From positions 12,753 to 76,752 of the forward strand of contig JAPLVL010000001.1 in the NCBI GenBank assembly GCA_026397135.1: 64,000 bases of DNA, given 5' to 3'. Positions within the stretch are counted from its first letter, which is position 1. The number at the start of each line of letters is the position of its first letter. The DNA is from Candidatus Berkelbacteria bacterium. GTDB taxonomy: Bacteria > Patescibacteriota > UBA1384 > XYA2-FULL-43-10 > 1-14-0-10-43-13. The notes below the pieces were generated by a model. That model did no database searches. It had not been told where the DNA came from and saw nothing but the letters and a program-made list of their open reading frames with translations. A program made the translations under genes and the position numbers. Shown here piece after piece: positions 244-20,008 of the stretch.

Positions 244-1212
244 TTACTCTTTGATGATTTCGTCCCGAGACAAAAGACCCTTTTGGGCTCCAATATATTG
301 AATCACCGATCCGGAGTTGGCAATTCCCCAGTCTAGCGATTCTTCGATAATTTTAGCTGAGATATCTTCGTCTGAAATAATAACCCGTCCCAAAAATCCG
401 GTAGCAAAAGCATCTCCTGCTCCAGTCGAATCAACTTTCTTGATATGCAAATCTGGAACTTTGTGATAAAAATCGGTCCCGTCATAAACTGTTGCGCCCT
501 CTTTGCCATTTGTGATTACAACTATCTTGACGCCTAGACGTTGCAAACCCTTTGCTGCTTCTTCGATCTGAGGTCGAATCGGAAAATTCAAAAATTTGAT
601 CGCCTCTTCACGATTCAAAAACAAAATTGAGGTACAATGCAGCAAATGGCGGTAATGATTCGCTCCCTTGGCAATCTGTTTTGATCCAGGATTCCAAGCA
701 AATTTAGCACCATGCTCAGCAACTTCTTCGACCACTCTCTTCTCTACGTCATCCGTATTGTCTCCCAGAGAAGTCATGAAAAGCCAATTCGCATGCACTC
801 CCTTCTTGATTTTCAATTCAGAATAGTCCCTAAGCCCATGATAGACGAAAACAGTTCGCTCGCCGTCAATAGAAAATATAACCGAAAAACCGGTTTGATT
901 TTTCGAGCTGATCAAAATCTGATTTGTATCAACATCTTCATCAATTAATTTATCAATCACTTTAGTCTTGGGCGAGTCATCCCCCAAAGTGGTTGCCAGA
1001 GCGGTTTTGAGTCCAAGTCTAGAAAGCCCAACCGCAATATTACATGCCGAACCGCCGACTTCGTATTGAACCGACTTGAGCGGAATTTTTTCGCCAAATT
1101 CAAATGCAATCCCTTTGCCCGATGCGAAAGTTCGGTCGTAGTGAATATCCATCTCCGGTTCGACAAAAACATCTTCAAACGCATCACCAATTGTCAAAAC
1201 ATCGTATTTCAT
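244..1212 (-). CDS. PfkB/ribokinase-family carbohydrate kinase
   Basis: 322 aa. Carries the DSTGAGDAF ATP-binding signature near the C-terminus and a GG dipeptide region typical of the ribokinase fold. Confidence 0.8.
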   Translation of the reverse strand: MKYDVLTIGDAFEDVFVEPEMDIHYDRTFASGKGIAFEFGEKIPLKSVQYEVGGSACNIAVGLSRLGLKTALATTLGDDSPKTKVIDKLIDEDVDTNQILISSKNQTGFSVIFSIDGERTVFVYHGLRDYSELKIKKGVHANWLFMTSLGDNTDDVEKRVVEEVAEHGAKFAWNPGSKQIAKGANHYRHLLHCTSILFLNREEAIKFLNFPIRPQIEEAAKGLQRLGVKIVVITNGKEGATVYDGTDFYHKVPDLHIKKVDSTGAGDAFATGFLGRVIISDEDISAKIIEESLDWGIANSGSVIQYIGAQKGLLSRDEIIKE

Positions 1213-1809
1213 TTATTGCGATACCTTCAAACTTTCTATCATTTTGTAAAGTCGGGCCAGATCATCATCGAGATTGCTCTGGTCTGTATTTAGCGAGAAA
1301 TAAGCGCTCGCTTTGCTGTCAAAGGTAGCGAAGCAATCAACTTCTATTCTACTATCTTTGGGGGACTGCGCGCAGCGATATTGCCCGCCCTCTATGCTGT
1401 TATTTTCGACAATGAATTTTTGAAACCCGAGTGTTGACTGAAATCGACTGTCAAAAAATTTGATGTCTTTCTTGCTGACAGCACTTTTGGCTGGAAAAAT
1501 AAAAATTGAGACCGTTCGCGCCTTCTTGCCAAACCAATTTTGGACCGCTTTGTCGCTCTCAGCAGTTTTCTTCTCGCTTGCGCTTGGATAAAGCAAAAAT
1601 GCTGAATTGCTGTCAGCCTTCTCCTCGGCGAGCCAATTGTGTGGGATAGAAACCGTCGCAAGATTAGCACTATCGGCAGATTTGAGAGTGACGACCTTCG
1701 TCTGGAAATAGTACAAAAGTCCACCTGTGACCAAAAGCGCGAAAACTACTAAACCCACAACCAGATACTTGAACTTCTGAGCCGTTTTTTTCTCTTCTTC
1801 TTCCATCAT
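1213..1809 (-). CDS. Membrane-anchored hypothetical protein (single N-terminal TM helix)
   Basis: 198 aa. Hydrophobic segment LVVGLVVFALLVTGGLLYY after a charged N-terminus. Overlaps the neighbouring genes by 1-4 nt, so it is operonic. Confidence 0.5.
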   Translation of the reverse strand: MMEEEEKKTAQKFKYLVVGLVVFALLVTGGLLYYFQTKVVTLKSADSANLATVSIPHNWLAEEKADSNSAFLLYPSASEKKTAESDKAVQNWFGKKARTVSIFIFPAKSAVSKKDIKFFDSRFQSTLGFQKFIVENNSIEGGQYRCAQSPKDSRIEVDCFATFDSKASAYFSLNTDQSNLDDDLARLYKMIESLKVSQ

Positions 1810-2621
1810 GCCCCCCTAAACAATTTAATATATTGCAAAACTACTTTTTCGACATGTGCCATCGCATCTTCCATCGCAACACGATAATCAGTCTCGTCAG
1901 AGCTCTCCAGCGCAGAAGTGAAGGCTTTTCTAATATTAGTGTCAATATTGAACTTTGCAACTCCGATTCCCATAGCATGGCGGATATCGCCATGTGAGAG
2001 CCCAGATGCACCGTGCATCACGAGTGGAATTTCTACAACATTAGAAATTCGCTCCAGGAGAGACAAATCCAATTTTTCGCCCTCAGGTGCACCATGCTCA
2101 TTGCCGACTGAGATCGCGATACTATCTACCCCTGTCTCTTCTACAAATTTTACCACCTCGGGAGGCCCTGAATATACTGCCTTGCCCGATAACCGCCCAC
2201 CCTCCTCTCGGCCAATAATTCCAACCTCGGCTTCGACAGAAACTCCAAACTTGTGGGCGTAATCAACGACCTTTTCGGTCATCAAAATATTCTCTTCGTA
2301 TGGATATTTGGAACCATCGAACATAACTGACGAATATCCAATATCGATCGCTTGCTTCACTGTCAAGAAATCATGCGCATGGTCGAGGTGAATCCCAGCC
2401 TTGGCACCACTTGATTTGATTTCGTCGGTAATGATATCGAAGAGTTGCTTCAACCCAGCGTATTCAATTGCTCCCGGGGTCGTTTGAATCAGGATCGGAA
2501 AATCAGCTTTGCTAGCAGCACTACAAATTGCCTTCGTCACCTCGAGATTGGCAGTGTTAAACGCTCCAATTGCATATCCGTTAGCTCGAGCTTTCTTTAA
2601 TTCATGTGCAACATTTATCAT
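1806..2621 (-). CDS. fba: Class II fructose/ketose-bisphosphate aldolase
   Basis: 271 aa. N-terminus MINVAHELKKARANGYAIGAFN, a HLDHAHDF metal-binding segment and a VMFDGS motif are typical of class II FBA/TagBP aldolases. Confidence 0.85.
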   Translation of the reverse strand: MINVAHELKKARANGYAIGAFNTANLEVTKAICSAASKADFPILIQTTPGAIEYAGLKQLFDIITDEIKSSGAKAGIHLDHAHDFLTVKQAIDIGYSSVMFDGSKYPYEENILMTEKVVDYAHKFGVSVEAEVGIIGREEGGRLSGKAVYSGPPEVVKFVEETGVDSIAISVGNEHGAPEGEKLDLSLLERISNVVEIPLVMHGASGLSHGDIRHAMGIGVAKFNIDTNIRKAFTSALESSDETDYRVAMEDAMAHVEKVVLQYIKLFRGA

Positions 2622-2658
2622 TTTACCTCTTGCGTTTATTTAATTTACCAATCCCAGA

Positions 2659-2766
2659 TTATCTGCCTGCCAATTTTATTATTGTAACCACAATCACAGC
2701 CAAAACAGCGACCAATACCATCGCCGCGAGAAGTTCAATCAGAGAAAACGCTCTACTGCTCTTCAC
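2659..2766 (-). CDS. Micro-ORF (35 aa) that is entirely a prepilin-type N-terminal domain
   Basis: GGAGGG SD, 5-nt spacer, GTG start. Translation VKSSRAFSLIELLAAMVLVAVLAVIVVTIIKLAGR* matches the class-III signal / methylation motif (K/R-x-x-[GA]-F-[ST]-L-I-E-L-L + hydrophobic helix). Below the 60-aa cutoff of the ORF track. Confidence 0.45.
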   Translation of the reverse strand: MKSSRAFSLIELLAAMVLVAVLAVIVVTIIKLAGR

Positions 2767-2830
2767 AAACCCTCCTACTTTATTCTCGCTATTCAACCAG
2801 TTTGATAACTTTATAACTTGATAAACTTAT

Positions 2831-3952
2831 TTATTTCAACGCTTCGATTCCGGGCAATTTCTCGCCAGCCAAGAATTCCAATGCAGCTCCGCCACCAGTC
2901 GAAATGAAGCTAATATTCTTGTCTAATCCCTCTGATTTGACGAAACCAACCGTATCACCGCCGGCAATTACACTTGTCTTACCCACAAGCTGTGACATTG
3001 CTTTTGCGACTGCGAGCGAACCATCACGATATTTCTCCGATTCAGTATAGCCGAGATTTCCATTCCAAAGCACAGTCTCAGCTCCTTTGATGATCTCCGC
3101 AAATTTTTTCTGTGCATCTGGACCAATATCCATAATCTTCCATTTGCCACCGCTCTGCTCTTCCTTCAGCGAATCAATCGGCAAGATGATTTTCTTTGAT
3201 AATTTCTTCAGCATCTTCTCACAATCAGCCACCATTTCTGTATCATAAACAGATTCGCTAATCTCTTCACCCCTTGCCTTCAAGAAGGTATTTGCCACTC
3301 CTCCACCGATCAAAATCTTGTCAGCTTTCGGCGCCAATTTCTCAATCATGCCTGCTTTGTCTTTAATTTTAACACCGCCAACTACGATAATAAAGGGCTT
3401 TTTCGGACTCTCAATAATCTTGCCCAGATTTTCAATCTCGCTTTGCAAAAGTAATCCAGCAAAACTAGGCAAGAACTTAGTAATTGCTTCGACTGAAGCA
3501 TTGGCACGATGGCTGACAGCAAAAGCATCGTTAACATAAACATCAGCGTATTGCGCTAGCTCCTTCGCAAATCCTGCATCGTTTTCTTCTTCCCGCTTGT
3601 CCCAGCGCAAATTTTCCAATACCAAGATACCGCCAGGCTGAAGCGATTCGACCAGTTTTTCGACAGGAGCACCAAAAATTCCCGGCGCCATCGCCACCTT
3701 CAAATTCAGCATCCGCTGCAATTCCCTAGCAACCGGAGCGATTGAAGTCTCTTCGCTCGGCTTACCCTCTGGACGACCCAGATGAGTTCCAATAATTAAT
3801 TTGCACCGACTTTCGACTAGATATTTAATTGTCGGCAAAACGGCACGAATTCGGTTCAAATCGGAAATTTCTCCATCTTTGACCGGCACATTGAAATCAA
3901 CTCGCAAAAAAACTCTTTTGTCAGCTACTTCGGCCTCTTGAACTAATTTCAT
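2831..3952 (-). CDS. pgk: Phosphoglycerate kinase
   Basis: 373 aa. VFLRVDFNVP N-terminal signature and a GGGA..LEF..G.KLPG C-terminal hinge motif. Confidence 0.9.
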   Translation of the reverse strand: MKLVQEAEVADKRVFLRVDFNVPVKDGEISDLNRIRAVLPTIKYLVESRCKLIIGTHLGRPEGKPSEETSIAPVARELQRMLNLKVAMAPGIFGAPVEKLVESLQPGGILVLENLRWDKREEENDAGFAKELAQYADVYVNDAFAVSHRANASVEAITKFLPSFAGLLLQSEIENLGKIIESPKKPFIIVVGGVKIKDKAGMIEKLAPKADKILIGGGVANTFLKARGEEISESVYDTEMVADCEKMLKKLSKKIILPIDSLKEEQSGGKWKIMDIGPDAQKKFAEIIKGAETVLWNGNLGYTESEKYRDGSLAVAKAMSQLVGKTSVIAGGDTVGFVKSEGLDKNISFISTGGGAALEFLAGEKLPGIEALK

Positions 3953-4067: not shown

Positions 4068-5033
4068 ATGAAATCAGTTGTCTCTATTCATCAGCTCGGT
4101 CAGATTTTTGATTTTATCAAAAAGGATTATCGTGTTCTCGGGACGAAGGAGGAAAACGGTAAGCCTATTTTCGGCGAAATCTCTAGCGCAAGAGAAATCC
4201 TAATCCCGACACCCAAGACGATTTTGCCTTTCAAAAAACTGATCTACCCTGCAATACTCGACCTGGCCAAAACGGAAAACGGAAAACCGGTCGCATTTTT
4301 CGGTATGACAAATTGTGATGCCGAAGCTCTCTGCGTCTTTTTGGACAAATTCAAAGACACCGGCCTCGTACCTCCGTTTAGAAATATCCTGGTAATTTCG
4401 ACGACCTGTGTCCCCGATGAAAATTGTTTCTGCACAGCCTTTGGCAACGGAAAAATTACAAATTTTGATCTCCACATCACCAAAGAAAAGGATCAGTACG
4501 CAATCTTCTCCGGTTCTGCGCTGGGGCGGAAAATTCTCAAACTGAACCGAATCAAAGTTTCAAATACTATATCGAAACCAACTGCAGTCAAGCTAGAAAA
4601 TGTCAGGAAAATCCAGTTAGAAAAACTAGGCAAGGCAATCGACGACAAAACCGGAAAACTGCCCTTCTGGCAGGAAATTGCAGACGAGTGTTTCGGCTGC
4701 GGCGCTTGTACTGCCGTCTGCCCGCTTTGTTTTTGCACCGGCAAAGACTTTGAAAATGATGCCGAGGGCGGCTGCAAACATTGCCTCAAATGGGATTCTT
4801 GCTATGCCAAAAGTTTCTCCGAAATTCAAAACCATTTCGACCTGCGCCCAAGCAATGTCAATCGGCTTTACAACTGGTATCATCACAAATTCGTCCGCTC
4901 ACCCAAGGAGGACGGCGAGATCCTCTGTACCGGTTGCGGCCGCTGTATCAAAGCCTGCCCTGCGTATCTGAACCAACATCGAATCATCGAAACTGTCCAA
5001 AATTATACAAAAGTAATCGACAAAAGCAAATAA
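4068..5033 (+). CDS. hydB: [NiFe] hydrogenase (group 3b-like) beta subunit, 2x[4Fe-4S] ferredoxin-like
   Basis: 321 aa. Two CxxCxxCxxxCP-type motifs (CFGCGACTAVCPLC and CTGCGRCIKACPAY). First gene of the beta-gamma-delta-alpha string. RBS GGAGGG before the ATG. Confidence 0.7.
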   Translation: MKSVVSIHQLGQIFDFIKKDYRVLGTKEENGKPIFGEISSAREILIPTPKTILPFKKLIYPAILDLAKTENGKPVAFFGMTNCDAEALCVFLDKFKDTGLVPPFRNILVISTTCVPDENCFCTAFGNGKITNFDLHITKEKDQYAIFSGSALGRKILKLNRIKVSNTISKPTAVKLENVRKIQLEKLGKAIDDKTGKLPFWQEIADECFGCGACTAVCPLCFCTGKDFENDAEGGCKHCLKWDSCYAKSFSEIQNHFDLRPSNVNRLYNWYHHKFVRSPKEDGEILCTGCGRCIKACPAYLNQHRIIETVQNYTKVIDKSK

Positions 5034-5044
5034 TCAATTCCAAA

Positions 5045-5854
5045 ATGCCAAACCAAGATTCAAAATTTAAATATACTTCATACGAAATTATCAAAAAGGA
5101 AGAGATGATGCCTGGCATGTTTCTCTTCCGATTGAAGGGTCGACTTGATTTCAAGCCCGGTCAATTTGTCCAAGCTGCGCTTGAACATTTCGGCGAAGGG
5201 ACATTTGCCCCCTGCTCCGATCCAAACCAAAAAGATTATTTCGAACTTTGCATCCGTGGTTGCGGTTCGACCTCAAACGGGCTAATCACTCTTTTGCCCG
5301 GTGATGAAATGCTCGTCAGGGGTCCTTACGGAAATGGCTGGCCAATCAAGAAACTCTGGTACAAAGACACTCTCCTGATCGCCGGCGGTATGGGGCTGGT
5401 CCCACTGCGACCGCTAATCTTCGAGATGCTACGAAGCAAGATCAACTTCGACAAAATCACTCTGGTTGCTGGCTTCAAGACAGATGAACATTTGCTTTTC
5501 TCACATGATTTGGAAATCTGGCGCAAGAAGTTATCCAAGGTCATCCCAGTAGTCGAAATCGGCAGCAAAAATTTCTGGGGTGAAATCGGAATGATCACCG
5601 AACCGCTCAAAAATCTAGTCTTCAACAAGAAAAAGACAATCGCTCTGATTTGCGGACCAGAAGTGATGGTGCCATTCGTCAACCAAGTTTTGGAGGAAAA
5701 AGGTCTCCCTCACAACCAAATTTATATTTCCTACGAGCGCCGAATGGAGTGCGGGATCGGCATCTGCCAACATTGCAATATTGGCAGCCACTTGGTCTGC
5801 AAAGACGGACCGATCTTCCGATACGATCAGATAAAGGAAGAGGTGGGCAAATGA
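5045..5854 (+). CDS. hydG: Hydrogenase gamma subunit: FAD/NAD(P)-binding oxidoreductase with C-terminal [2Fe-2S] (PyrK/FNR-like)
   Basis: Track ORF 4781..5854. Its first 88 codons overlap hydB in another frame, so the start is taken at ATG 5045 (MPNQDSK). FNR-like FAD region, LIAGGMGLVP NAD-binding motif, and C-terminal CGIGICQHCN...C cluster. Confidence 0.75.
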   Translation: MPNQDSKFKYTSYEIIKKEEMMPGMFLFRLKGRLDFKPGQFVQAALEHFGEGTFAPCSDPNQKDYFELCIRGCGSTSNGLITLLPGDEMLVRGPYGNGWPIKKLWYKDTLLIAGGMGLVPLRPLIFEMLRSKINFDKITLVAGFKTDEHLLFSHDLEIWRKKLSKVIPVVEIGSKNFWGEIGMITEPLKNLVFNKKKTIALICGPEVMVPFVNQVLEEKGLPHNQIYISYERRMECGIGICQHCNIGSHLVCKDGPIFRYDQIKEEVGK

Positions 5855-6567
5855 AAAAATCACTCGCCATATTTTCACTTACCTCCTGTGAGGGCTGTCA
5901 ATTCGAAATGTTAAATCACTACGAAACTTTCAACGGACTCCTAAAATACTTCGAGATCAAAAATTTTCGTCTAGGACAAGAAAATAATTTTGACGAAAAT
6001 TTCGACATTGCCATCATCGAAGGTAGCGCCGACGGCGAAGAACAAATTAAATTTTTGAAAAAAATACGCAAACAATCCAAGGTGATTGTCGCCATCGGTG
6101 CCTGCGCTCATCTAGGGGGCATTCAGTCCGAACGCAACAGTTTGCCACAGGGAATCTTCCACAAAAAACCGACCAAGATAGTCCCTGCTGTGATAAAAAC
6201 CGAATATATCATTCCGGGCTGTCCCATAAATCACGCGGAACTTTATCATTGTCTTTTGGATATTTACTGGGGCAAACAGTTTTTTCTGCCTGATTTAGCC
6301 GTTTGTTTCGAGTGTCGAGTGAATGAAAATGAATGTTTGATCAAATCTGGCAAACCCTGTCTTGGTCCAATCACCAGAAGCGGCTGCAACTCTGTCTGTG
6401 TCAACGCTGGCGAAGCTTGTCTCGGCTGCCGTGGAGCCAAACCAGAGCCAAACATCGAGAAATTGAAAAAAATCCTTGAGCCAATGATTGGAGAAAAAGA
6501 AACTGAAAATATAATGACAATTTATGGAGACTTAACAAATGAAATCGACCCCAGTGCAAAAAAATAA
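5851..6567 (+). CDS. hydD: [NiFe] hydrogenase small (delta) subunit
   Basis: Track ORF 5650..6567. Real start taken at ATG 5851 (MKKSLAIFSLTSCEGCQ), which overlaps the hydG stop (ATGA). Proximal-cluster Cys motif CEGC, then GxCA..GG and a C-terminal Cys pattern typical of group-3 small subunits. Confidence 0.75.
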   Translation: MKKSLAIFSLTSCEGCQFEMLNHYETFNGLLKYFEIKNFRLGQENNFDENFDIAIIEGSADGEEQIKFLKKIRKQSKVIVAIGACAHLGGIQSERNSLPQGIFHKKPTKIVPAVIKTEYIIPGCPINHAELYHCLLDIYWGKQFFLPDLAVCFECRVNENECLIKSGKPCLGPITRSGCNSVCVNAGEACLGCRGAKPEPNIEKLKKILEPMIGEKETENIMTIYGDLTNEIDPSAKK

Positions 6568-6853
6568 GATTCTTTCGCTAAGAAATCCGATAGTAATAAT
6601 CGTGATAGTGCTCCTTCTGATTTGGCTTTGTCCAAAACCATATTCACTATCAACAAACATCGTATCTATACCCAAATCTAGTCCTGGAAATAGCATTTCA
6701 AATCTAATCTATGAACAAGAGAGTTCCGGCTGGTGTATCGGAATCATTTATCCGGAAAAATCAAAATCTGATGTGCTTGGATTCAAGCTGGAAACTACCG
6801 GACTTGATTGTATCGGATTTCGTTTGCAGAAAAAGGGCCAGATTGCGCTTTAA
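6539..6853 (+). CDS. Hypothetical small membrane protein (doubtful)
   Basis: 104 aa with one TM segment. Overlaps the hydD 3' end and lies just outside the left inverted repeat of the GIY-YIG element. Confidence 0.25.
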   Translation: MKSTPVQKNKILSLRNPIVIIVIVLLLIWLCPKPYSLSTNIVSIPKSSPGNSISNLIYEQESSGWCIGIIYPEKSKSDVLGFKLETTGLDCIGFRLQKKGQIAL

Positions 6854-6885
6854 ACAATAAGAAGTAATTACCAATACACAAATAA

Positions 6886-7256
6886 ATAGTCATTCTGAGC
6901 CGATCTAGCTTGGAGGCGAAGAATCTAGCGAAGCGCAAAATGTTTGTTTACATTATCACAAACTATAAAAATAATGTTTTCTATATTGGCGTCACGAATA
7001 ATCTGACAAGACGAATATATGAACACAAAAATAAGTTATTTAGCAATTCCTTTTCCAGTAGATACAACTTATACAAATTAATTTGGTTCGAGGAGTTCAA
7101 TACTGCAATTGAAGCAATTACCGCTGAGAAAAAAAGGGATGGAAACGAGAAAGAAAAATTGAGATGATCAAGAAAACAAATCCCAATTTTCAGGAAATTG
7201 AATCTTATTAGTTTACGCTTCGCTAGATCCTTCGCAAGAACACTCAGGATGACTAT
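6886..7256. mobile_element. GIY-YIG gene-carrying element bounded by ~45-bp imperfect terminal inverted repeats, inserted between hydD and hydA
   Basis: Left end atagtcattctgagccgatctagcttggaggcgaagaatctagcgaagcg (~6886-6935). The reverse complement of the right end (~7216-7256) is atagtcatcctgagtgttcttgcgaaggatctagcgaagcgt. The termini share ATAGTCATYCTGAG and GCGAAGRATCTAGCGAAGCG. Confidence 0.6.
6940..7167 (+). CDS. GIY-YIG (URI-domain) nuclease superfamily protein, COG2827-like
   Basis: MFVYIITNYKNNVFYIGVTNNLTRRIYEHKN has the GIY...YIG...R...EH signature. The track ORF begins at 6910, but the ATG at 6940 follows the left inverted repeat directly. Confidence 0.65.
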   Translation: MFVYIITNYKNNVFYIGVTNNLTRRIYEHKNKLFSNSFSSRYNLYKLIWFEEFNTAIEAITAEKKRDGNEKEKLR

Positions 7257-7297
7257 TCAAGAGTCAACATTATCTGAAATTTAAATAAGGTAAAACA

Positions 7298-7606
7298 ATG
7301 GACAAGAATATCAAATTGATCAAGACTTTAATGATAATTATTGCCACCATCGACTCGATCGCAGCGATTGTCATATTTATCGGTATTAACCTTCTGGGAA
7401 ATATTGATTGCAGTTTGCCCCAAAAACCATGCTCAACCGAGTATTGGCCACTTTTGCTTTTATTGCCAACCATCATCTACACCATTGCTTCGCTCCAGAA
7501 GAACAAGATAGTTGGTATTGTCCTGAAATCAATAAGTATTCCCTTTTTGATAATATTCTTTCTTGTAACCTTAAATTACTTGTTAATGGCCAAAATAGGA
7601 AGGTAA
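7298..7606 (+). CDS. Hypothetical integral membrane protein (3 predicted TM helices)
   Basis: 102 aa, strongly hydrophobic. RBS aaggtaaaacaATG. Lies between the GIY-YIG element and hydA. Confidence 0.4.
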   Translation: MDKNIKLIKTLMIIIATIDSIAAIVIFIGINLLGNIDCSLPQKPCSTEYWPLLLLLPTIIYTIASLQKNKIVGIVLKSISIPFLIIFFLVTLNYLLMAKIGR

Positions 7607-7609
7607 AAA

Positions 7610-8860
7610 ATGGAAACAGCTGTTCCCAAAATTGAAGGTCATGCCGCATTTTATACTCATTTAAAGAGTGGCCATGTCGATAAAGCTAGAATCATCGGAC
7701 TCGAAAATGATCGTTTCGTTGAGAGAATTTTGGTTGGAAGAAAATACTGGGAAGCACCGATAATTACTTCTCGCATTTGCGGAATTTGCCCAGTTATCCA
7801 CAACATCACCTCGACAAGAGCGATAGAGAATGCCTGCAACATCGAAGTGAGCAATCAGACAATTCTACTCCGGAAGCTGATGCTAGCAGGACAGATGGTC
7901 CAGAGCCATTCTCTCCATCTCTACCTTCTGGTTTTGCCTGATTTTGTCGGAGCAAGTTCCTCCTTCGAGTTACAAAGGGATCATCCTGAGATTTTTCAGA
8001 ACGCAATTGAATTGAAGAAATATGCTGACAGAATTATCGAGACTGTCGGCGGCCGAGCCGTTCATCCCGTCGCTTCCGTTCCTGGCGGCTTCAAATCTTT
8101 CCCCACCAAGGAGAAGATTACTGCCCTAATTCCAATTGGGCAGAAGACAACAGAGATTGCCGAAACAACTCTCCGACTTTTTGCTACATTTAAGTATCCA
8201 CAGTTGAAACGAGAGATAATCTCGAGTGCATTATATCTTGATCACGAATACGCAATCTACAATGGCGATATCTGGAACAGTAAAGGCGATATTTTCAAAG
8301 CAGAGAAATATCATGACTACATTTATGAGGAGCTAAAACCTTACACTCGGGCAAAATTCGGAACACTCAAGGGATACGAGATGGTCGTCGGCGCTGCCGC
8401 CAGACTCAATATCAACGGTTTCAAAAACCTAAGCCCAAAAACACAGGAGCTGATTGAGGAATTTAATATTACGCTTCCACTTAATAATCCGTTTGATAAT
8501 ATTATGGCTCAGGCAATCGAGAATCATCACTTCGCCGCGCAATCAGTCGAGCTTTTGGAGTATTTCCAGAAAACAGGTGTCAAAAATGAAAAATTAGTTG
8601 TACCCTCCGATTTTGGCAAAGGCACCGCCGCTTGTGAGGCTCCGCGAGGAACACTTTTTCATTATTACAATCTCGACAAAGATGGATTTATCGAAAAGTG
8701 TGACATTATCACACCTACAGTTCAGACCCTGCCCGCAATAGAATTTGACCTAAAGAATCTCTCACCTCTTCTCAAGGATCTATCTCCATCCGAGAGAAGC
8801 ACTCTGATCGAAACCTTGATTCGAGCATATGACCCCTGCATTACCTGTGCCACACATTAA
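7610..8860 (+). CDS. hydA: [NiFe] hydrogenase large (alpha) subunit; ends exactly at the L5 motif histidine
   Basis: 416 aa. N-terminal RICGICPVIH (RxCGxC L1 motif). C-terminal DPCITCATH followed directly by the stop codon, so there is no C-terminal extension. Confidence 0.85.
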   Translation: METAVPKIEGHAAFYTHLKSGHVDKARIIGLENDRFVERILVGRKYWEAPIITSRICGICPVIHNITSTRAIENACNIEVSNQTILLRKLMLAGQMVQSHSLHLYLLVLPDFVGASSSFELQRDHPEIFQNAIELKKYADRIIETVGGRAVHPVASVPGGFKSFPTKEKITALIPIGQKTTEIAETTLRLFATFKYPQLKREIISSALYLDHEYAIYNGDIWNSKGDIFKAEKYHDYIYEELKPYTRAKFGTLKGYEMVVGAAARLNINGFKNLSPKTQELIEEFNITLPLNNPFDNIMAQAIENHHFAAQSVELLEYFQKTGVKNEKLVVPSDFGKGTAACEAPRGTLFHYYNLDKDGFIEKCDIITPTVQTLPAIEFDLKNLSPLLKDLSPSERSTLIETLIRAYDPCITCATH

Positions 8861-12617: not shown

Positions 12618-13924
12618 TTTCTCAAATAAAGAACCACCCCACCGGGCCTTTCGTCTTTTGGTGCAACTCTGGATTTTGCTTCTTCGAGGTCAACTGATGG
12701 GTCATCGACAATAATGATGCCGTTTGTCATCCCCTTGCCAATTGTTCTACAGATTCCAGCGTCTTTTACAAAAACGACGCCGCCTTCAACCCACGAAAAG
12801 ACAATATTGTCACCAAATTTTTCAGGGATAGTAAAATTAATAACACCATGGTCAATTCTCAAGCTGTTAATATACGGGCTACTTTCGAAATATGTCACTT
12901 CGCGAACTGTCTCATAAGGATTCACAAAACCAACTTTATCTTTTTCTTCATCATAATATGCGATCGTGGTAGATTCACCGGGGGAAGTTGCTCCTGGTTG
13001 ACGATTACGAATTCTATTTCGCTTTGATTTCAGAAATATTGTTGGCGATAATGTTGGTCTGACTGAGATTTGTTCAAATCCAATATTTTCAATCAAAAAT
13101 GTACCGCCAGCCGTACCAAAACAAATTTCTGTGGTTAATTGGTCCTGCTTCGCCAAAAAATCCTTGACGTAAACCGTACCGCCGGAAGCTTTGGGAGCAA
13201 TCTCACCCCAACGCAATGTATTTATGATAATTGTGCCATTTTGCATTACTTCCCCGATAACACCAACTGCTTCGCCAACCTCCAGTCGTCCACCAAGCAT
13301 CTCTGGGGCAAGTTTTGGCACATTATCAGGCTGATTTTGTTCGAACTTTTCCAGTTTTACATCTCCAGCAAGCATTCTCAAAAAAGCAAACTGTTCTAGA
13401 CGATCAATCATAATATTGCCACCGTTTAAAGACGAACCAAAATTATGACAACGAGGGTCGTTTGAATAATTTGACAGATCATCAAATTTAATCCTGATCG
13501 GCTTCTTGCTTTGCTTGTAAATTGAGAAGAAAAGCCTAATTGCCTCAATTTGAAATGCGTCTGAAATTTCTCCGCTGCTAAACTGACCTTTAAGATATTC
13601 CATCAACCGATCAAAGTCAGACTGCCTAATCGACTTGTCTCTGTGTAATACTGGAACAGAATGCGGATCTACAATAATATCATTAACAGATGCTTTAACA
13701 AACGAACGCTTTGTTTGAGGCATACCGATTGCTGTCAAAAAATCCAGATCCAGCCGCGGGTATTCAGTCAGAAACTCATCGATTAACAATTTAATTTTAT
13801 CAGCAAAACCACGGGTATCTCCTTGCTTTTCACGACTCAAAGACAGAGAGAATTTCCGTTCAAGAGCTACCAAACTATTCATCATTTTTGTAATTTCACC
13901 GCAAATCATCACTTCATCACCCAC
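12563..13924 (-). CDS. GXGXG beta-helix-like repeat protein (GltB-domain-3/FwdC-like segments) with N-terminal M-I-CGEIT motif
   Basis: 453 aa. Segments GGRLEVGEAVGVIGEVMQNGTIIIN...GGTVYVKD and GGVVFVKDAGICRTIGKGMTNGIIIVDD resemble GXGXG repeats. Probable start MICGEIT (~13909). Confidence 0.45.
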   Translation of the reverse strand: MGDEVMICGEITKMMNSLVALERKFSLSLSREKQGDTRGFADKIKLLIDEFLTEYPRLDLDFLTAIGMPQTKRSFVKASVNDIIVDPHSVPVLHRDKSIRQSDFDRLMEYLKGQFSSGEISDAFQIEAIRLFFSIYKQSKKPIRIKFDDLSNYSNDPRCHNFGSSLNGGNIMIDRLEQFAFLRMLAGDVKLEKFEQNQPDNVPKLAPEMLGGRLEVGEAVGVIGEVMQNGTIIINTLRWGEIAPKASGGTVYVKDFLAKQDQLTTEICFGTAGGTFLIENIGFEQISVRPTLSPTIFLKSKRNRIRNRQPGATSPGESTTIAYYDEEKDKVGFVNPYETVREVTYFESSPYINSLRIDHGVINFTIPEKFGDNIVFSWVEGGVVFVKDAGICRTIGKGMTNGIIIVDDPSVDLEEAKSRVAPKDERPGGVVLYLRKWVEGKYFKKKKAEFILL

Positions 13925-13965
13925 TTAATTCTTACTGCTTACTTCTTAATCCTTGCTACTTATTC
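13925..13965. repeat. Heptamer-periodic CTTAAT/CTTACT-type intercistronic repeat
   Basis: ttaattcttactgcttacttcttaatccttgctacttattc, the same family as at 23598, 34238 and 47490. Confidence 0.5.
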
Positions 13966-16515
13966 GTACCCAAATTTCTTGATGAACCAAACCTTGACTA
14001 TTTGAACCAAAAATATATATACAGCGGCCAACCCCAGAATAATCAGGAAAAAGAGTGCTGGTAGCGGCGTGAAGCCAAACCACCTAGCCAAAACAGTGTA
14101 GGGGATAATCGCCCCGACAAAAATAACTGCGATTAATGTATAGAGCAAATATTTGCTCGCTCTGCTCTGGATAAGAGGGATTTTCTTGGTTCGGATAATC
14201 AGGACGACCAGAGTTTGGGTCAAGAGTGACTCAACAAACCAACCAGTGCGAAAGAGTGGAGGCGTGGCGCGAAAGACATACCACATAATACCGAAGGTAG
14301 CAAAATCAAAGAGCGAACTAACTGGGCCGATCGTCCACATAAATTCCTTGATGAAGTTAACATCCCACGGTCGCGGCTTCTGTAAGTCTTCTGCGTCAAC
14401 ATTATCAAGCGGCAGGGCTACCTGGGACAAATCATAGAGAAAATTGTTGAGCAGTACCTGCGGCGGCAACATCGGCAGAAATGGTAGGAGAATACTGGCA
14501 CCAGTCATACTGATCATATTTCCTAAGTTAGAGCTCGCTCCCATTTTGATGTACTTAATCACATTGACAAAGGTCTTCCTGCCCTCGATAACGCAATCAC
14601 ATAGAACTCTGAGATCCTTTTCCAATAGGATAATCGCGGCCGTTTCCTTGGCAATATCCATACCAGTGTTGACCGAAATCCCAACATCAGCCGACTTCAA
14701 GGCTGGTGCATCATTGACTCCATCACCAAGGTAACCGACAACATGACCATTCGACTGGAGCGCTTTGATAATTTTTTCCTTTTGCAAAGGCGTCAGCCTG
14801 ACAAAAACGTTTGCCTTTGCCACCAGCTCTCGCAGGACATGTTCGCTCGCGCTGCTAATCTCATTGCCATTTACGATACCGCTGATCGAAAAATTAACTT
14901 CGTTACAAATTTTCCTGGTCACCATTTCGTTGTCGCCTGAAAGAATCTTGAGAGATACTCCCAAGCCTGCCAAGCTCGTAATAGTATCGCTAACATCAGG
15001 TTTGGGCGGATCGAGGAAGGTTACAAATCCCTGGAAAACCAAATCAGATTCGTCTTCAAATTGAAGCTTGGTTTTGCTACGAATCTTCTTGGTCGCTATT
15101 GCCAAAACACGAAAACCTTCGCGGCTGAGCGATTCATATAGAGATATAATCTTTTCCTTTGATTTCTTGGAAAGAGGTAGAGCGACCTCTTTCAGCGAGA
15201 AATGGCTTGATTTGGCAATTATTTCCTCCGGCGCTCCCTTTGCGACCAAGAGATCCTTGCCAGCACGACGCAACACGACCGACATCATTCGCCTTTCAAA
15301 ATCGTAGGGCAGTTCATCAATTTTCTCGTAATGAGACGTTTCAATTTTTTGATGCTTTAGAATCGCTTGATCCAAAACATTTTTCAAACCGGTTTCAAAA
15401 TGACTATTCAAATATGCATAACGAAAAATCGAGATGTCTTCCCTACCCTTAGCGTCGCAATATTTAATCAGAGCGATACTGTCGAGTGTCAGCGTGCCCG
15501 TCTTGTCGGTACAGAGGATATCCATCGCACCGAAATTTTGGATCGAATCCAGCTTTTTGACAATTATTTTTTTCTTCTCCATCTGCATCGCGCCGCGGGA
15601 GAGATTGACCGTCACAATCATCGGCAACATCTCAGGTGCCAAGCCAACTGCTACCGCCAAGGAAAATAATAACGCATCGACAATGTTACCCTTGAAAATC
15701 GCGTTAAAGAAGAAGATAAATGCTGCCAAGATGATAATCAAACGAATCATCAGCCAGGTGTAGGATTTAATACCTTTTTCGAAGGCCGTCTCAACTCCGA
15801 CTTTGGAAATATCTTCACTCAACATTCCAAACTGAGTTCCCTTGCCGATTGCTAAGACAACTCCGATTCCGGTGCCTCCGACAACACTTGAGCCCATGAA
15901 AATAATATTATCGGAGTCTAAAATATCGTCACTTTTAATTTCGCTTGCCCATGAATCTTTGATCACCGGGAAAGATTCGCCGTTTAGGGACGACTGATTA
16001 AGATACAGACGATTGGCTGAAATCAGCCTAATATCAGCTGGAACCATATCCCCAACCCCAAGCGCGACCAGGTCACCTGGCACCAATTCCTCCAGATTTG
16101 TCGTCCTTTCGTGGCCATCACGAATTACCTTGACTTTGATTTTGACTCTCTCGGCTAGTTTCTGAGCATTTCGGTTGGCTCGATATTCCTGAACAAAAGA
16201 AAGGATCACACTCAAAACAGCCAGAGCAATCACAATAATTGAGTTTATTTGTTCACCGAAATAGAAAGAAACCCCAGCCACCACAAAGAGAGTGATAACT
16301 AGAGGGTTAGCAAACTTAGACAAGAGCTGAACAACTGGCCCATATTTCTGAGCCGCAATTTTGTTGGCACCATAAAAACGCTGGCGGCGGCGGACTTCCC
16401 GCTCCGACAAACCTTTTCTGCCTGTTTTGTATTGCTGCAAAGCTTTCTCCGGAGCAAGACGACTAATTTCAAAAACAAGGCTTTGGGTTACGACCTGATT
16501 TTTCATTCCCTCCAT
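13960..16515 (-). CDS. mgtA: P-type ATPase, MgtA-like (Mg2+-importing) cation transporter
   Basis: 851 aa. Phosphorylation motif CTDKTGTLT, hinge GDGVNDAPAL, and an MgtA-like N-terminal cytoplasmic region. Confidence 0.8.
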   Translation of the reverse strand: MEGMKNQVVTQSLVFEISRLAPEKALQQYKTGRKGLSEREVRRRQRFYGANKIAAQKYGPVVQLLSKFANPLVITLFVVAGVSFYFGEQINSIIVIALAVLSVILSFVQEYRANRNAQKLAERVKIKVKVIRDGHERTTNLEELVPGDLVALGVGDMVPADIRLISANRLYLNQSSLNGESFPVIKDSWASEIKSDDILDSDNIIFMGSSVVGGTGIGVVLAIGKGTQFGMLSEDISKVGVETAFEKGIKSYTWLMIRLIIILAAFIFFFNAIFKGNIVDALLFSLAVAVGLAPEMLPMIVTVNLSRGAMQMEKKKIIVKKLDSIQNFGAMDILCTDKTGTLTLDSIALIKYCDAKGREDISIFRYAYLNSHFETGLKNVLDQAILKHQKIETSHYEKIDELPYDFERRMMSVVLRRAGKDLLVAKGAPEEIIAKSSHFSLKEVALPLSKKSKEKIISLYESLSREGFRVLAIATKKIRSKTKLQFEDESDLVFQGFVTFLDPPKPDVSDTITSLAGLGVSLKILSGDNEMVTRKICNEVNFSISGIVNGNEISSASEHVLRELVAKANVFVRLTPLQKEKIIKALQSNGHVVGYLGDGVNDAPALKSADVGISVNTGMDIAKETAAIILLEKDLRVLCDCVIEGRKTFVNVIKYIKMGASSNLGNMISMTGASILLPFLPMLPPQVLLNNFLYDLSQVALPLDNVDAEDLQKPRPWDVNFIKEFMWTIGPVSSLFDFATFGIMWYVFRATPPLFRTGWFVESLLTQTLVVLIIRTKKIPLIQSRASKYLLYTLIAVIFVGAIIPYTVLARWFGFTPLPALFFLIILGLAAVYIFLVQIVKVWFIKKFGYE

Positions 16516-16528
16516 ATTTTTCTCAAAA

Positions 16529-17521
16529 TTATTTTCCGATGTGCATTGTCAAATCGACAAGTCTCTCTGAATAGCCCCACTCGTTGTCATACCAGGAGAT
16601 TACTTTAACTAAATTGCCTCCGACAACCTGAGTCAGGGATAGGTCGACCATGGCAGAATTTTTCATCGCTGTGAAATCACTTGAGACAAGCTCCTCTTCT
16701 GTGGTTGCCAAAATCCCTTTCAATTCACCCTTCTCTGCACTCTTGAAAGCCTTGTTTATTTCCTCAACAGTCACTTCCTTTTTCAAGACAGCCGTAATGT
16801 CGGAGAGTGAGACTACAGGTGTTGGGACGCGAACAGCCAAGCCGTCAAACATACCTTTCAGGGTTGGAATTGTTTTGTATGCCGCTTTGGCCGCGCCAGT
16901 CGAAGTCGGGACAATATTACAAGCAGCTGCTCTGGCACGACGAAGATCTTTGTGGGGGCCGTCAACCAAATTTTGGTCAGCGGTGTAGGAATGGATGGTC
17001 GTCATCAGAGATTTTTCGATTCCAAATGTGTCTTCCATGACTTTCATCACAGGTGTAATGCAATTAGTAGTACAGGAGGCATTGCTTACGATCTTCTCAT
17101 CTGCATACTTTTCAGAGTTGACTCCCATCACAAAAGTTGGAGTTTCCTCATCTTTGGCTGGGGCTGACATCACTACTTTCTTCGCCCCTGCCTTCAAATG
17201 AGCTTCTGTGTCGGGAATGGTCAGAAATTTTCCTGTACATTCAATAACTACATCAATTCCAAGTTCTCTCCAAGGCAAAGCCGATGGATCTTTCTCCGCA
17301 TAAGAGTGAATACGGCGCTTTTCTATTATCAAATCCCCTTCGTCATGGCCGACTTCATGATCCCAAATGCCATAGCACGTATCGTATTTAAGCAAATGAG
17401 CCAAAGTCGCTACATCCGTCAAATCATTGATCGCAACTAACTCGATCCCTTCACGCTCTGTAATAATTTTGGCCGCCGCTCGGCCAATTCGGCCAAAGCC
17501 GTTGATAGCAATCTTCAACAT
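16529..17521 (-). CDS. gap: Glyceraldehyde-3-phosphate dehydrogenase, type I
   Basis: 330 aa. NGFGRIGR Rossmann motif and catalytic SCTTNC. Confidence 0.9.
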   Translation of the reverse strand: MLKIAINGFGRIGRAAAKIITEREGIELVAINDLTDVATLAHLLKYDTCYGIWDHEVGHDEGDLIIEKRRIHSYAEKDPSALPWRELGIDVVIECTGKFLTIPDTEAHLKAGAKKVVMSAPAKDEETPTFVMGVNSEKYADEKIVSNASCTTNCITPVMKVMEDTFGIEKSLMTTIHSYTADQNLVDGPHKDLRRARAAACNIVPTSTGAAKAAYKTIPTLKGMFDGLAVRVPTPVVSLSDITAVLKKEVTVEEINKAFKSAEKGELKGILATTEEELVSSDFTAMKNSAMVDLSLTQVVGGNLVKVISWYDNEWGYSERLVDLTMHIGK

Positions 17522-17592
17522 TGTAACTCCAATCTTAAATATTAAATATTAAACATTAAAACTTAAATCCATATCTTATTATCTTTTATCTA

Positions 17593-17985
17593 TTATGTTT
17601 TTCCTTTTAGGGTTAATAGACTTTTGGCAATCATTTTACTTATTTGCTCAAGCTCATCCAGTAAATTTTCAACACAAGAAATCTCCAAACCAGACCCTTC
17701 AATTTCATGCAAAATCCAGAGCCAATATTCTGATTCATTAGCACTTTTCAGAGCTATTTCGTAAAACTTAATAAAATCGCGCCTCGACGAAGACGATTTG
17801 GCTTCAATAATATTTGCTCCGATTGAAGTAATGGCACGAACCAACTGATCCGTTATAATCCAGAATATTTTTGACTGTGGCAATTTTTGGCATAATTGAA
17901 TAATCTGTAATGACAAATTGAATGCTCTGAGCTTGACGTTGGATTTCACGTTAAGTTTTTCGTTGTTAAGATATGGGTTTAACAT
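17593..17985 (-). CDS. Four-helix-bundle protein (TIGR02436 / 23S rRNA intervening-sequence protein family)
   Basis: Track ORF 17593..18138 overlaps tpiA. The family is ~120-130 aa, so the start is taken at Met ~17985. Conserved core IGANIIEAKSSSSRRDFIKFYEIALKSANESEYWL. Confidence 0.6.
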   Translation of the reverse strand: MLNPYLNNEKLNVKSNVKLRAFNLSLQIIQLCQKLPQSKIFWIITDQLVRAITSIGANIIEAKSSSSRRDFIKFYEIALKSANESEYWLWILHEIEGSGLEISCVENLLDELEQISKMIAKSLLTLKGKT

Positions 17986-17992
17986 TTGAGAT

Positions 17993-18736
17993 TTAAGATT
18001 TAAAATTCTTAGAATTACTCCAAACTCGACAGATTTCAATAAATTCTGCCGCCCGCACACTTGCTCCGCCGACCAATACACCATCGATTTCAGGACGCTC
18101 TGCGTAGCCTGCAATATTGCTCCCCTTGACACTACCACCGTATAATATCGGCGTCGCAGTATGTAGTAATTCCCGCAGTTTTACCGCCACTTTCGCGACA
18201 TATTCCGGCTCAGCATTTTCGCCAGTCCCAATCGCCCAAATTGGTTCATAGGCGACAATGATATCCTTGAAATATTTCTTCGGTACATGATAGAGCGCCG
18301 CAGCCAATTGACGAGTCGGTTCAGCCGCATTATTTTGACGCTTCCTTTCCCCCACGCAAATAATTGGCGTAATTCCATGTTTCAGAGCAGCCAAAACCTT
18401 TTCGTTTACATCTTGGTCTGATTCGTCAAAATATTGTCTCCTCTCAGAGTGACCGACAATGCAAAATTTGGCCATTTCTGCAACCATCGATGGTGCAATC
18501 TCTCCAGTGAATGCACCTTCCTCTTCGTAAGCCATATTCTGAGCGCCGAGCAAAATTTTCTTGTTGTCGCCCAAAATATTCTTGATCTCAGGAAGCCAAA
18601 GAGCCGGCGGACAGAGAACGACTTCTATCCCGATGACAGGCGCCACTTTGTTCCGAATCGTAGTTGCCAAGATGTGCGCATCTGCGATACTGGTTGCATA
18701 CATTTTCCAATTGCCAACGATAATCGAGCGCTTCAT
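17993..18736 (-). CDS. tpiA: Triosephosphate isomerase
   Basis: 247 aa. AYEPIWAIGTG active-site signature and a GGSV loop. Confidence 0.9.
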   Translation of the reverse strand: MKRSIIVGNWKMYATSIADAHILATTIRNKVAPVIGIEVVLCPPALWLPEIKNILGDNKKILLGAQNMAYEEEGAFTGEIAPSMVAEMAKFCIVGHSERRQYFDESDQDVNEKVLAALKHGITPIICVGERKRQNNAAEPTRQLAAALYHVPKKYFKDIIVAYEPIWAIGTGENAEPEYVAKVAVKLRELLHTATPILYGGSVKGSNIAGYAERPEIDGVLVGGASVRAAEFIEICRVWSNSKNFKS

Positions 18737-18797
18737 ATATCCCTCCAGACCAGTTACAAGCTAAAAGCCAAAAGCTAGAAGCTGATTTATAATATAA

Positions 18798-19823
18798 TCA
18801 TTTTCTCTTGTTTTCATTATACAATTCTATTAGCTCTTTGGCTAGTTTGTTCGAATTGTGAAAAAGAGGATTCACTTCATCAATCACATCTGCCAAAATA
18901 ATCTTGATACCCTCAATCTCAGGTTCAAGAGTCGTAATATTGTTGATCTCGCCAAGCTTAGCTTCATCAGACGAAGTTCGAATAATTTTGCTATTGACCA
19001 AAACATAATCAAATAATTTTCGTCCGCCGTAACTTTTGATCTCTCTAATATGATCATCAATCGTAAAATTTCTTGTCTGGGTTCGCTCTGTCGAACAGTT
19101 GGCAACATAGACCCGCAAAGCTGTTTTGTTTTTCGCGATCGCCTCTCTAATACCATGAATCAAGAGATTGGGCACAAGACTACCGTACAGGCTACCAGGA
19201 CCAAGCACGATCAGGTCAGCAGACAAAATTGCTTCCTCTGCTTTCTTATAAGCCTTAACTTTGGGTTTATTTAGACTTATTCGCTTAATCTTCTTCAGTT
19301 CCTTGTCCAAATGGGATTCCCCCCGACAAATCGTATTGTCAGCATATTCGATCACAAGATCGATATTGGCCAAAGTCGAGGGCAAGACGCGACCAGCTGT
19401 CTGAAAAATTTCACTCGTGACCTCGATCGCTCGTTCGAAAGAACCGAGGTAATCAGTCAATCCAGTAATCCAAATATTGCCGAGAGTGTGGCCACCAAAT
19501 GTTTTCTTCTTTGCATCGAAACGATGTTCAAATATTTTGGCGATCAAGTCTTCATCGTAAGCCAGAGCCGAAATACATTTTCGAATATCCCCTGGAGCAA
19601 CCATATCAAAATCCTGACGAATTTCTCCAGTCGAGCCACCCGCATCAGCCACCGTCACTATCGCCGAAATATCACTCGAGTATGCCTTGAGTCCACGCAA
19701 AAGATTGGCCAGCCCAGTGCCGCCGCCAATGACAGCGATCTTGACTACGCCTCCCGCATTGAACCGTGGATCTGTCGGTGCGTAGCGCAACCATTTCCAC
19801 CAAGTTTTGATAATATTTGACAT
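18798..19823 (-). CDS. YvcK/UPF0052 family (CofD-like, gluconeogenesis factor) protein
   Basis: 341 aa. VKIAVIGGGTGLANLLRGLK...VTVADAGGSTG is typical of the family. Confidence 0.8.
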   Translation of the reverse strand: MSNIIKTWWKWLRYAPTDPRFNAGGVVKIAVIGGGTGLANLLRGLKAYSSDISAIVTVADAGGSTGEIRQDFDMVAPGDIRKCISALAYDEDLIAKIFEHRFDAKKKTFGGHTLGNIWITGLTDYLGSFERAIEVTSEIFQTAGRVLPSTLANIDLVIEYADNTICRGESHLDKELKKIKRISLNKPKVKAYKKAEEAILSADLIVLGPGSLYGSLVPNLLIHGIREAIAKNKTALRVYVANCSTERTQTRNFTIDDHIREIKSYGGRKLFDYVLVNSKIIRTSSDEAKLGEINNITTLEPEIEGIKIILADVIDEVNPLFHNSNKLAKELIELYNENKRK

Positions 19824-19913
19824 GAATTAAATCTATCATTTGCACTCAAATAGTTCAATCACACAAGAGATAATATTATAAACAAAATAAACAAAAACTC
19901 ACAAATATTCATT

Positions 19914-19955
19914 GCGTCGTGAAAAATGGGACGATCGTCCCATTTTTCACGACGC
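19914..19955. terminator. 42-nt perfect palindrome (19-21-bp arms) downstream of uvrC: terminator-like hairpin or operator
   Basis: gcgtcgtgaaaaatgggacgatcgtcccatttttcacgacgc. On the minus strand it follows the uvrC stop by ~40 nt and precedes a T-rich stretch and a TATAAT upstream of yvcK. Confidence 0.5.
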
Positions 19956-20008
19956 AACCTTAGAACAATATGAGACTGGAAAATATAACTGTGATTAAAA
20001 GATGGAAA

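Follow-up and report, generated by a model that had tools for sequence, protein, structure and literature searches.

A probable micro-gene for a headless prepilin at the pgk-fba junction of a Berkelbacteria clade

Introduction

A glycolytic gene string in a Candidatus Berkelbacteria genome carries, at the junction of pgk and fba, a 35-codon open reading frame (ORF) whose predicted product, here called the mini-prepilin, is a prepilin-type N-terminal domain with nothing of a pilin after it. Is such an ORF a gene, and if it is, what could a peptide of this size do among glycolytic enzymes?

Host attachment and DNA uptake in CPR/Patescibacteria are believed to centre on type IV pili, and to our knowledge all pilins characterised to date carry a globular head. 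We know of a pilin helix acting alone only from engineered or synthetic fragments, such as the Caulobacter CIP. The mature mini-prepilin is predicted to have 29 residues, compared to 44 to 61 in the shortest accepted pilins, and its gene lies apart from pilus genes. If it is made and processed, the pilin superfamily would need a new lower size limit, and there would be a natural case of a pilin helix acting alone. Our literature searches on mini, truncated and short pilins and on N_methyl small ORFs returned no description of stand-alone prepilin-helix genes.

Results

Position, start and surroundings of the ORF

We analysed a stretch of 64 kb (the window, 64,000 nucleotides) that holds the ORF. 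An earlier note on this DNA had placed a 35-aa ORF at positions 2659 to 2766, between fba and pgk, and both the ORF and its placement are borne out, with the addition of the strand, which that note had not given. The coding sequence (2659..2766) runs on the minus strand from a GTG start at 2766-2764 through 35 codons to a TAA stop at 2661-2659, and it translates as V/M-KSSRAFSLIELLAAMVLVAVLAVIVVTIIKLAGR (35 aa, the V/M coming from the GTG start), that is, the predicted leader MKSSRA followed by FSLIELLAAMVLVAVLAVIVVTIIKLAGR. The strong Shine-Dalgarno site and the GTG start described before are also there, whereas the spacer between them measures 3 nt and not 5: the site AGGAGGG (2770..2776, minus strand), read directly from the sequence, stands 5' of the GTG with ttt in between. 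GGAGGG followed by 2 to 5 nt is the usual strong ribosome-binding site in the Berkelbacteria source genome; the exact hexamer is found 5' of 5 other genes listed for the window and partial forms (GGAG or GAGGG) at several more. An alternative TTG start at 2796, which would give a product of 45 aa, was ruled out, since the Shine-Dalgarno site lies directly 5' of the GTG and the two orthologues described below both start at the aligned position.

The note had also called the ORF too short for the ORF track and peptides of this kind rarely annotated; this one, however, has an annotation. The exact 35-aa sequence is in GenBank, annotated by PGAP, as MCX6808055.1 of Candidatus Berkelbacteria bacterium, on a contig of 98,267 bp and under the label 'prepilin-type N-terminal cleavage/methylation domain-containing protein'. 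This entry is a singleton when clustered at 90% identity.

Both flanking genes are recognised by their Pfam matches and share the strand of the ORF, with pgk upstream across a spacer of 64 nt (2831..3952, minus strand; Pfam PGK, 2.6e-126) and class II fba downstream across a spacer of 37 nt (1806..2621, minus strand; Pfam F_bP_aldolase, 1.3e-84). A gene for a pfkB-family kinase (244-1212, minus strand) is on the same strand as well. No promoter-like or terminator-like site was found between the ORF and either pgk or fba in any of the three lineages that carry the mini-prepilin; the ORF would share a transcript with pgk and fba. Expressed together with glycolytic genes, the peptide would be linked in its amount to central metabolism. 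A reading of the segment as an RNA element was ruled out, with no Rfam match in 2500-3000.

A search of 50 window ORFs against Pfam returned no pilus gene and no pilD. The ORFs with matches have housekeeping or general functions, including glycolysis genes, a NiFe hydrogenase cluster, translation factors, SecA, FtsEX and tRNA synthetases, and ten or so gave no match. Pilus genes were likewise not found in the flanks that we fetched from relatives. To follow the source contig beyond the window we looked up pfkB, which led to a 2.8-kb Logan contig that begins inside fba, and the peptide, which gave no match. Across CPR/Patescibacteria, both PilD and the machinery of type IV pili range from widespread to near-universal (PMC6744442, PMC11623550).

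Several other features of the window concern the same gene strings. Divergently from pgk, positions 4068-8860 (plus strand) encode a 4Fe-4S protein, a small subunit of the NADH-oxidoreductase 20-kDa type and a NiFe hydrogenase large subunit; this cluster also adjoins pgk in those relatives whose sequence extends upstream (L027, L030, L032, L035 and L036), together with an annotated FAD/NAD-binding subunit. An ORF for a '23S rRNA-intervening sequence protein' (PF05635) lies beside tpi at 17593-18138 (minus strand), and another member of PF05635 is found between fba and pfkB in L035 (3331-3726), as a small gene that moves within these operons. At 21547-22455 (minus strand) the window encodes a GGDEF-domain protein, a possible diguanylate cyclase, which could become relevant should the mini-prepilin act on c-di-GMP signalling, as happens in Caulobacter.

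Family match and anatomy of the peptide

We scored the peptide against two models of the prepilin N-terminal domain, Pfam N_methyl (PF07963, gathering score 21.2 bits) and TIGR02532 (cut-off 16.3 bits). The window peptide reaches 29.9 bits with PF07963 (E 3.5e-7), its sole Pfam match, and 26.1 bits with TIGR02532. Its orthologues from two related lineages, represented by loci L027 and L036, score 26.0 and 24.0 bits with PF07963, so that all three pass the gathering score; with TIGR02532 the L027 peptide passes at 20.8 bits and the L036 peptide, at 15.4 bits, is just under the cut-off. A six-frame scan of the 64-kb window with strict and relaxed patterns found the mini-prepilin as the sole prepilin-type motif, and about 300 kb of fetched related loci contained no second such motif beyond the three mini-prepilins. 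From the family scores and the single occurrence of the motif in six frames of 64 kb, we conclude that the prepilin match is not due to chance and that, judged by its sequence, the window peptide belongs to the prepilin N-terminal domain family.

The class III signal peptide is described as a short, hydrophilic and positively charged leader of 6 to 26 residues, with Glu+5 among the residues that define it, lying within about 21 hydrophobic residues (PMC4471445). Both features are present in the three orthologues. The predicted leader of the window peptide, M/V-K-S-S-R-A (2749..2766, minus strand), is basic, has 6 residues and occupies positions 1-6 of the N_methyl profile, and in the three-sequence alignment every leader has 6 residues, of which 2 or 3 are Lys or Arg, and ends in Ala. 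Glu+5 of the predicted mature peptide (codon 2734..2736, minus strand) is an invariant column of the same alignment and falls within the hydrophobic tract. The predicted mature peptide itself (2662..2748, minus strand) has 29 residues, 24 of them forming a hydrophobic run (GRAVY 2.88) that is followed by the tail KLAGR, and the GRAVY of this 24-residue run lies between 2.6 and 3.05 across the orthologues. An AF2 model built on the three-sequence alignment shows a single helix over residues 9-34, with a mean pLDDT of 87.7.

The peptide departs from the pilin pattern at two points. The sequence around the predicted prepilin-peptidase site, which would lie after codon 6 (Ala|Phe), reads A/FSLIEL in the window and lacks an EY pair, and the residue at -1 is Ala instead of Gly in all three orthologues. 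Gly at -1 has been called 'absolutely critical' to processing in classical systems (PMC4471445), while PilD has been described as cutting after Gly or Ala (PMC3244431). As Ala is kept at -1 in all three peptides, slow cleavage or no cleavage at all is also possible. The second departure is the missing globular C-terminal domain: the ORF stops 5 residues past the hydrophobic helix and fba begins 37 nt further on. The earlier note had seen here a canonical prepilin N-terminus with no globular part behind it. The latter point is supported by the HMM matches and by the single helix of the AF2 model; of the former, the family assignment stands, with the cut-offs of both PF07963 and TIGR02532 passed, and the word canonical does not, given Ala at -1. 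Because Gly at -1 and a globular domain are both missing, the mini-prepilin, by its sequence, does not qualify as a type IV pilin proper.

Conservation at the pgk-fba junction

The PGK and FBA relatives of the window come from Candidatus Berkelbacteria and other Patescibacteria (CPR) assemblies, and the pgk-fba-pfkB string is common to Berkelbacteria-like genomes and metagenome contigs. We compared 18 distinct related pgk-fba loci, the window counted in. A mini-prepilin ORF is found at the junction in three of them, with products of 35, 36 and 57 aa, and not in the other 15. Apart from the window peptide (35 aa, MKSSRAFSLIELLAAMVLVAVLAVIVVTIIKLAGR), these are the peptide of L027/L041/L042 (36 aa, MRGKKALSLIELVISMAIVGVVGLLIVYVVRYIRAL; JGI Ga0376277_0000018, 971,566 bp) and that of L017/L036-L039 (57 aa, MVKKKALTLIELLVAMAVVLLIAIAVILFVSYKANKQEEAPASTNTTQEDTNPSNEN), the latter with a hydrophilic tail of 21 residues. 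Short ORFs with this N-terminal motif thus occur at the fba-pgk junction of two related lineages, so that the conservation check proposed in the earlier note, which could have refuted its reading, speaks in its favour.

In a PGK tree, the three genomes with a mini-prepilin form one clade (bootstrap 459/500; pairwise PGK identity 73-77%). The gene order in L027 is that of the window, namely pgk, the 36-aa ORF, fba, an ORF of about 200 aa and pfkB. A strong Shine-Dalgarno site (AGGAGG) precedes the L017/L036 ORF and a weaker one (AGGATGGG) the L027 ORF, the start codons of all three ORFs lie at one aligned position, and the distance from the stop codon to the fba start is 15 to 37 nt across the three lineages. 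The orthologues are present in separate assemblies from several samples; contigs from different samples that carry the 57-aa or the 36-aa orthologue are 100% identical in DNA and hence uninformative on population variation.

No peptide homologues beyond the three came out of searches with the 45-aa extension, with phmmer and with a three-sequence profile against 5.8 billion clusters and 1.84 billion representatives, a weak negative with so short a query and databases so large, and viral contigs scanned with the mini-prepilin profile held no relatives. As far as can be seen from sequence comparison, the headless prepilin micro-gene is limited to one Berkelbacteria clade, and the simplest history that the tree and the loci suggest is one origin in the common ancestor, after which the ORF was kept in every sampled descendant.

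The pgk-fba junction is a variable slot in Berkelbacteria-like relatives. It is empty, with pgk and fba directly adjoining, in seven distinct loci (L001/L008, L009, L010, L015, L019, L030 and L034). Elsewhere it holds members of three families of small membrane ORFs with Lys-rich ends: the 'MKKGWQKR' family in L002 (7135-7398) and L011/L012 (L012 3346-4182), the 'CLDC...GWPL' family in L013, L014/L016 and L032, and an 84-aa 'MMKKxLKIILGITG' family in L016 and L032 (junction coordinates 5110-5447 in L013, 995-2120 in L016 and 1869-2499 in L032). Three larger ORFs are found at the junctions of L028 (1013-1654), L029 (1073-2266) and L035 (1649-2476); their sizes, from smallest to largest, are 213, 275 and 397 aa. 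Downstream of pfkB, L041 carries at least eight tandem ORFs of about 234 to 258 aa on one strand (13626-20111), with no Pfam match on record, which look like a paralogous array.

The junction may simply take any small hydrophobic gene, and the mini-prepilin could then be a generic single-pass membrane microprotein that descends from a pilin 5' region, is no longer a PilD substrate and has lost any connection with pili; in function it would be like the other small hydrophobic proteins of this junction. That the junction in relatives hosts small membrane ORFs of three or more unrelated families is in keeping with such a protein, as are the Ala in place of Gly at -1 in all three orthologues and the lack of pilus genes nearby. 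The parts of the peptide that do not vary are, however, the class III determinants (leader length, a small residue at -1 and LIEL with Glu+5), whereas a plain membrane anchor needs no charged Glu within its helix, and all three peptides still pass the PF07963 gathering score. We consider a generic membrane protein unlikely, if still a serious candidate.

Evidence for selection

The DNA of the ORF is only 47-55% identical between orthologues, with a saturated dS of 1.4-2.1 and a dN of 0.58-0.79 (Nei-Gojobori). The resulting dN/dS of about 0.4-0.5 is weak evidence given the saturation of dS, and the nearest FBA relative, at only 72% identity, is too far for a clean dN/dS. What has been kept in spite of the saturation is the open frame, the start position, the 6-residue basic leader, Ala at -1 and [F/L][S/T]LIEL with its Glu+5, followed by Met at +10, the hydrophobic run of about 24 residues and a Lys or Arg no more than 2 residues past that run. 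The survival of these features through synonymous saturation argues that selection maintains the peptide, and from this pattern of sequence conservation the mini-prepilin is probably a real gene.

These data bear directly on whether the ORF is a functionless relic or a spurious call, in other words what is left of the 5' end of a lost pilin gene, annotated only because the HMM fires and with no effective translation. In favour of a relic are the very small size of the ORF, its status as a singleton at 90% identity, a family of just three members, the missing pilus context and a dN/dS too high to be decisive. Random frames of 35 codons with the same base composition are open with a P of about 0.10. 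A neutral stub would have lost its HMM match and also its open frame (which would survive with a P of about 0.1 in each lineage), whereas the ORF was kept in all three lineages of a clade with saturated synonymous sites, with frame, length, motif and ribosome-binding site intact in each. The spacers are compact (15-64 nt) and show no trace of a decayed head domain, for which there would be no room given that fba lies only 15-37 nt past the stop. We regard a relic as quite improbable.

Possible structural roles and the 198-aa neighbour

The mini-prepilin could also be a structural or minor pilin, an ultra-short filament subunit that acts, for instance, as a primer or spacer and stands at the extreme of the Geobacter PilA-N and Flp types. 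Its best matches among solved structures are indeed major pilins, led by Geobacter 'Geopilin domain 1' chains (26.5 and 23.0 bits), over the N-terminal 25 or so residues; pilins of 44 to 61 residues do assemble (PMC4471445; PDB 2m7g, 61 aa), and the 21-residue hydrophilic tail of the L036 orthologue could face the solvent. The forms with 29 or 30 mature residues, on the other hand, are almost wholly hydrophobic (GRAVY 2.6-2.9) and have neither alpha1C nor any surface part, so that as subunits they would expose a hydrophobic surface in the filament or leave a hole in it, and no pilin or assembly gene adjoins the ORF. A structural role appears very unlikely to us.

Between fba and pfkB, the window encodes a protein of 198 aa (1213..1809, minus strand) with an N-terminal membrane anchor, two conserved Cys and no Pfam match. 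It is 34% identical to the product of L027 3318-3947; tblastn returned no match to it in L001-L026, and the gene tables of the later loci list no comparable ORF between fba and pfkB. Its link to the mini-prepilin is only co-occurrence. A split pilin, in which the mini-prepilin would be the N-terminal helix and this protein of about 200 aa the extracellular domain, as in Geobacter PilA-N/PilA-C, has in its favour that, among the loci examined, the homologue is found only in L027, the other genome with both a mini-prepilin and sequence downstream of fba, and not in loci that lack the mini-prepilin, but we can give it hardly any weight, as shared ancestry may account for two joint occurrences, fba separates the two genes, the 198-aa protein has an ordinary N-terminal membrane helix of its own and its single-sequence AF2 model (pLDDT 54.9) is too poor for a fold comparison.

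Discussion

The reading of this locus that we favour, and to which we give about an even chance, is that of a selectively maintained micro-gene for a headless prepilin, with the 5' end of a pilin gene as its source. The gene would be co-transcribed with its neighbours, and its product would probably be a substrate of PilD and may act inside the membrane. We infer that the mini-prepilin is translated, cleaved and located in the membrane. Specifically, the ORF would go back to the 5' part of a type IV pilin gene, and the peptide would insert in the cytoplasmic membrane with its basic leader on the cytoplasmic side. PilD would then most likely cut after Ala6 and N-methylate Phe1, leaving a 29-residue peptide that consists of alpha1N only. 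Since the parts that form the exterior of a filament are missing, action within the membrane seems most likely and a structural role unlikely. One might speculate that the peptide occupies, or signals to, the binders of pilin helices, whether PilD, the PilC/PilMNO platform or a membrane sensor, and that pilus activity could in this way be tuned to the expression of the glycolytic operon.

There is a precedent, by analogy, for the activity of a pilin peptide that is only a helix. In Caulobacter, the N-terminal 17 residues of mature PilA are enough for signalling to the kinase PleC, and a synthetic peptide of these 17 residues lowers pilus-dependent phage susceptibility and surface attachment (PMC7196804). 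A more specific proposal is that the mini-prepilin, processed by PilD to a headless pilin of 29 or 30 residues, is an endogenous counterpart of the CIP, a diffusible intramembrane mimic of the pilin helix made from the glycolytic operon. It would compete for, or signal to, the sites at which the pilus machine or a sensor binds pilins, and would so couple pilus extension, attachment or DNA uptake to carbon flux in an ultra-small CPR bacterium. In so specific a form the proposal is a long shot.

This locus also bears on annotation. Domain-only micro-ORFs that carry generic pipeline labels can be conserved genes, and synteny can tell them from gene fragments.

Comparison with known systems

The mini-prepilin resembles the class III prepilin N-terminal domain in its short basic leader, the small residue at -1, the hydrophobic residue at +1, the Ser or Thr at +2, the LIEL with Glu+5 and the 21 to 24 or so hydrophobic residues in one helix. 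It differs in that it has neither alpha1C nor a beta-sheet head, carries Ala for Gly at -1 and is encoded in a glycolytic string with no pilus gene within 64 kb. The Patescibacteria pilins studied so far are all of the 'lollipop' shape, with a head domain (PMC11623550).

Among the specific NCBIfam models, ComGE (NF041013) ranks first with the window and L027 peptides, and with that of L036 it is the third-ranked model. Assignment as a ComGE minor pilin was ruled out, because the scores of about 18 bits (18.3 for the window, 18.0 for L027 and 18.9 for L036) compare with an equivalog cut-off of 49 bits. Unlike the small minor pilins of ComGE type that belong to the competence pili of single-membrane bacteria, the mini-prepilin aligns with only the N-terminal 29 or so of 83 profile positions and has no com operon around it.

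Geobacter PilA-N keeps an alpha1C with aromatic and charged surface residues and a Gly at -1, and its gene lies beside pilA-C and pilus genes. Also a pilin that is mostly helix, it is the best match of the mini-prepilin among solved structures (26.5 bits; 61 residues mature; PDB 2m7g, 9egp, 7tgg). The likeness is limited to the N-terminal 25 or so residues; the mini-prepilin, with 29 mature residues, is about half as long, and its neighbours are pgk and fba. A pilin of the Geobacter PilA-N type was ruled out on the half length, the missing alpha1C and the missing pilA-C neighbour.

The Flp/Tad pilins, such as Caulobacter PilA with a prepilin of 59 aa, are the smallest accepted pilins, and the 17-residue 'CIP' segment of the Caulobacter helix signals alone. 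Leaders of Flp pilins are longer than that of the mini-prepilin. The mini-prepilin has no Flp motif and no Flp family match, and assignment as a Flp/Tad (type IVc) pilin was ruled out in the lack of both the G/XXXXEY motif and a match to the Flp HMM. The CIP, moreover, is a fragment of a full pilin, whereas the mini-prepilin is a separate gene.

In Pseudomonas aeruginosa, Kilmury and Burrows are said to have described in 2016 that the N-terminal helix of the pilin is an intramembrane ligand of the sensor PilS. The ligand there is a full-length pilin, unlike the mini-prepilin, and no PilS-like sensor was identified in the window. Signalling by a pilin helix inside the membrane, as between PilA and PilS, is nevertheless the type of mechanism that we propose for the mini-prepilin.
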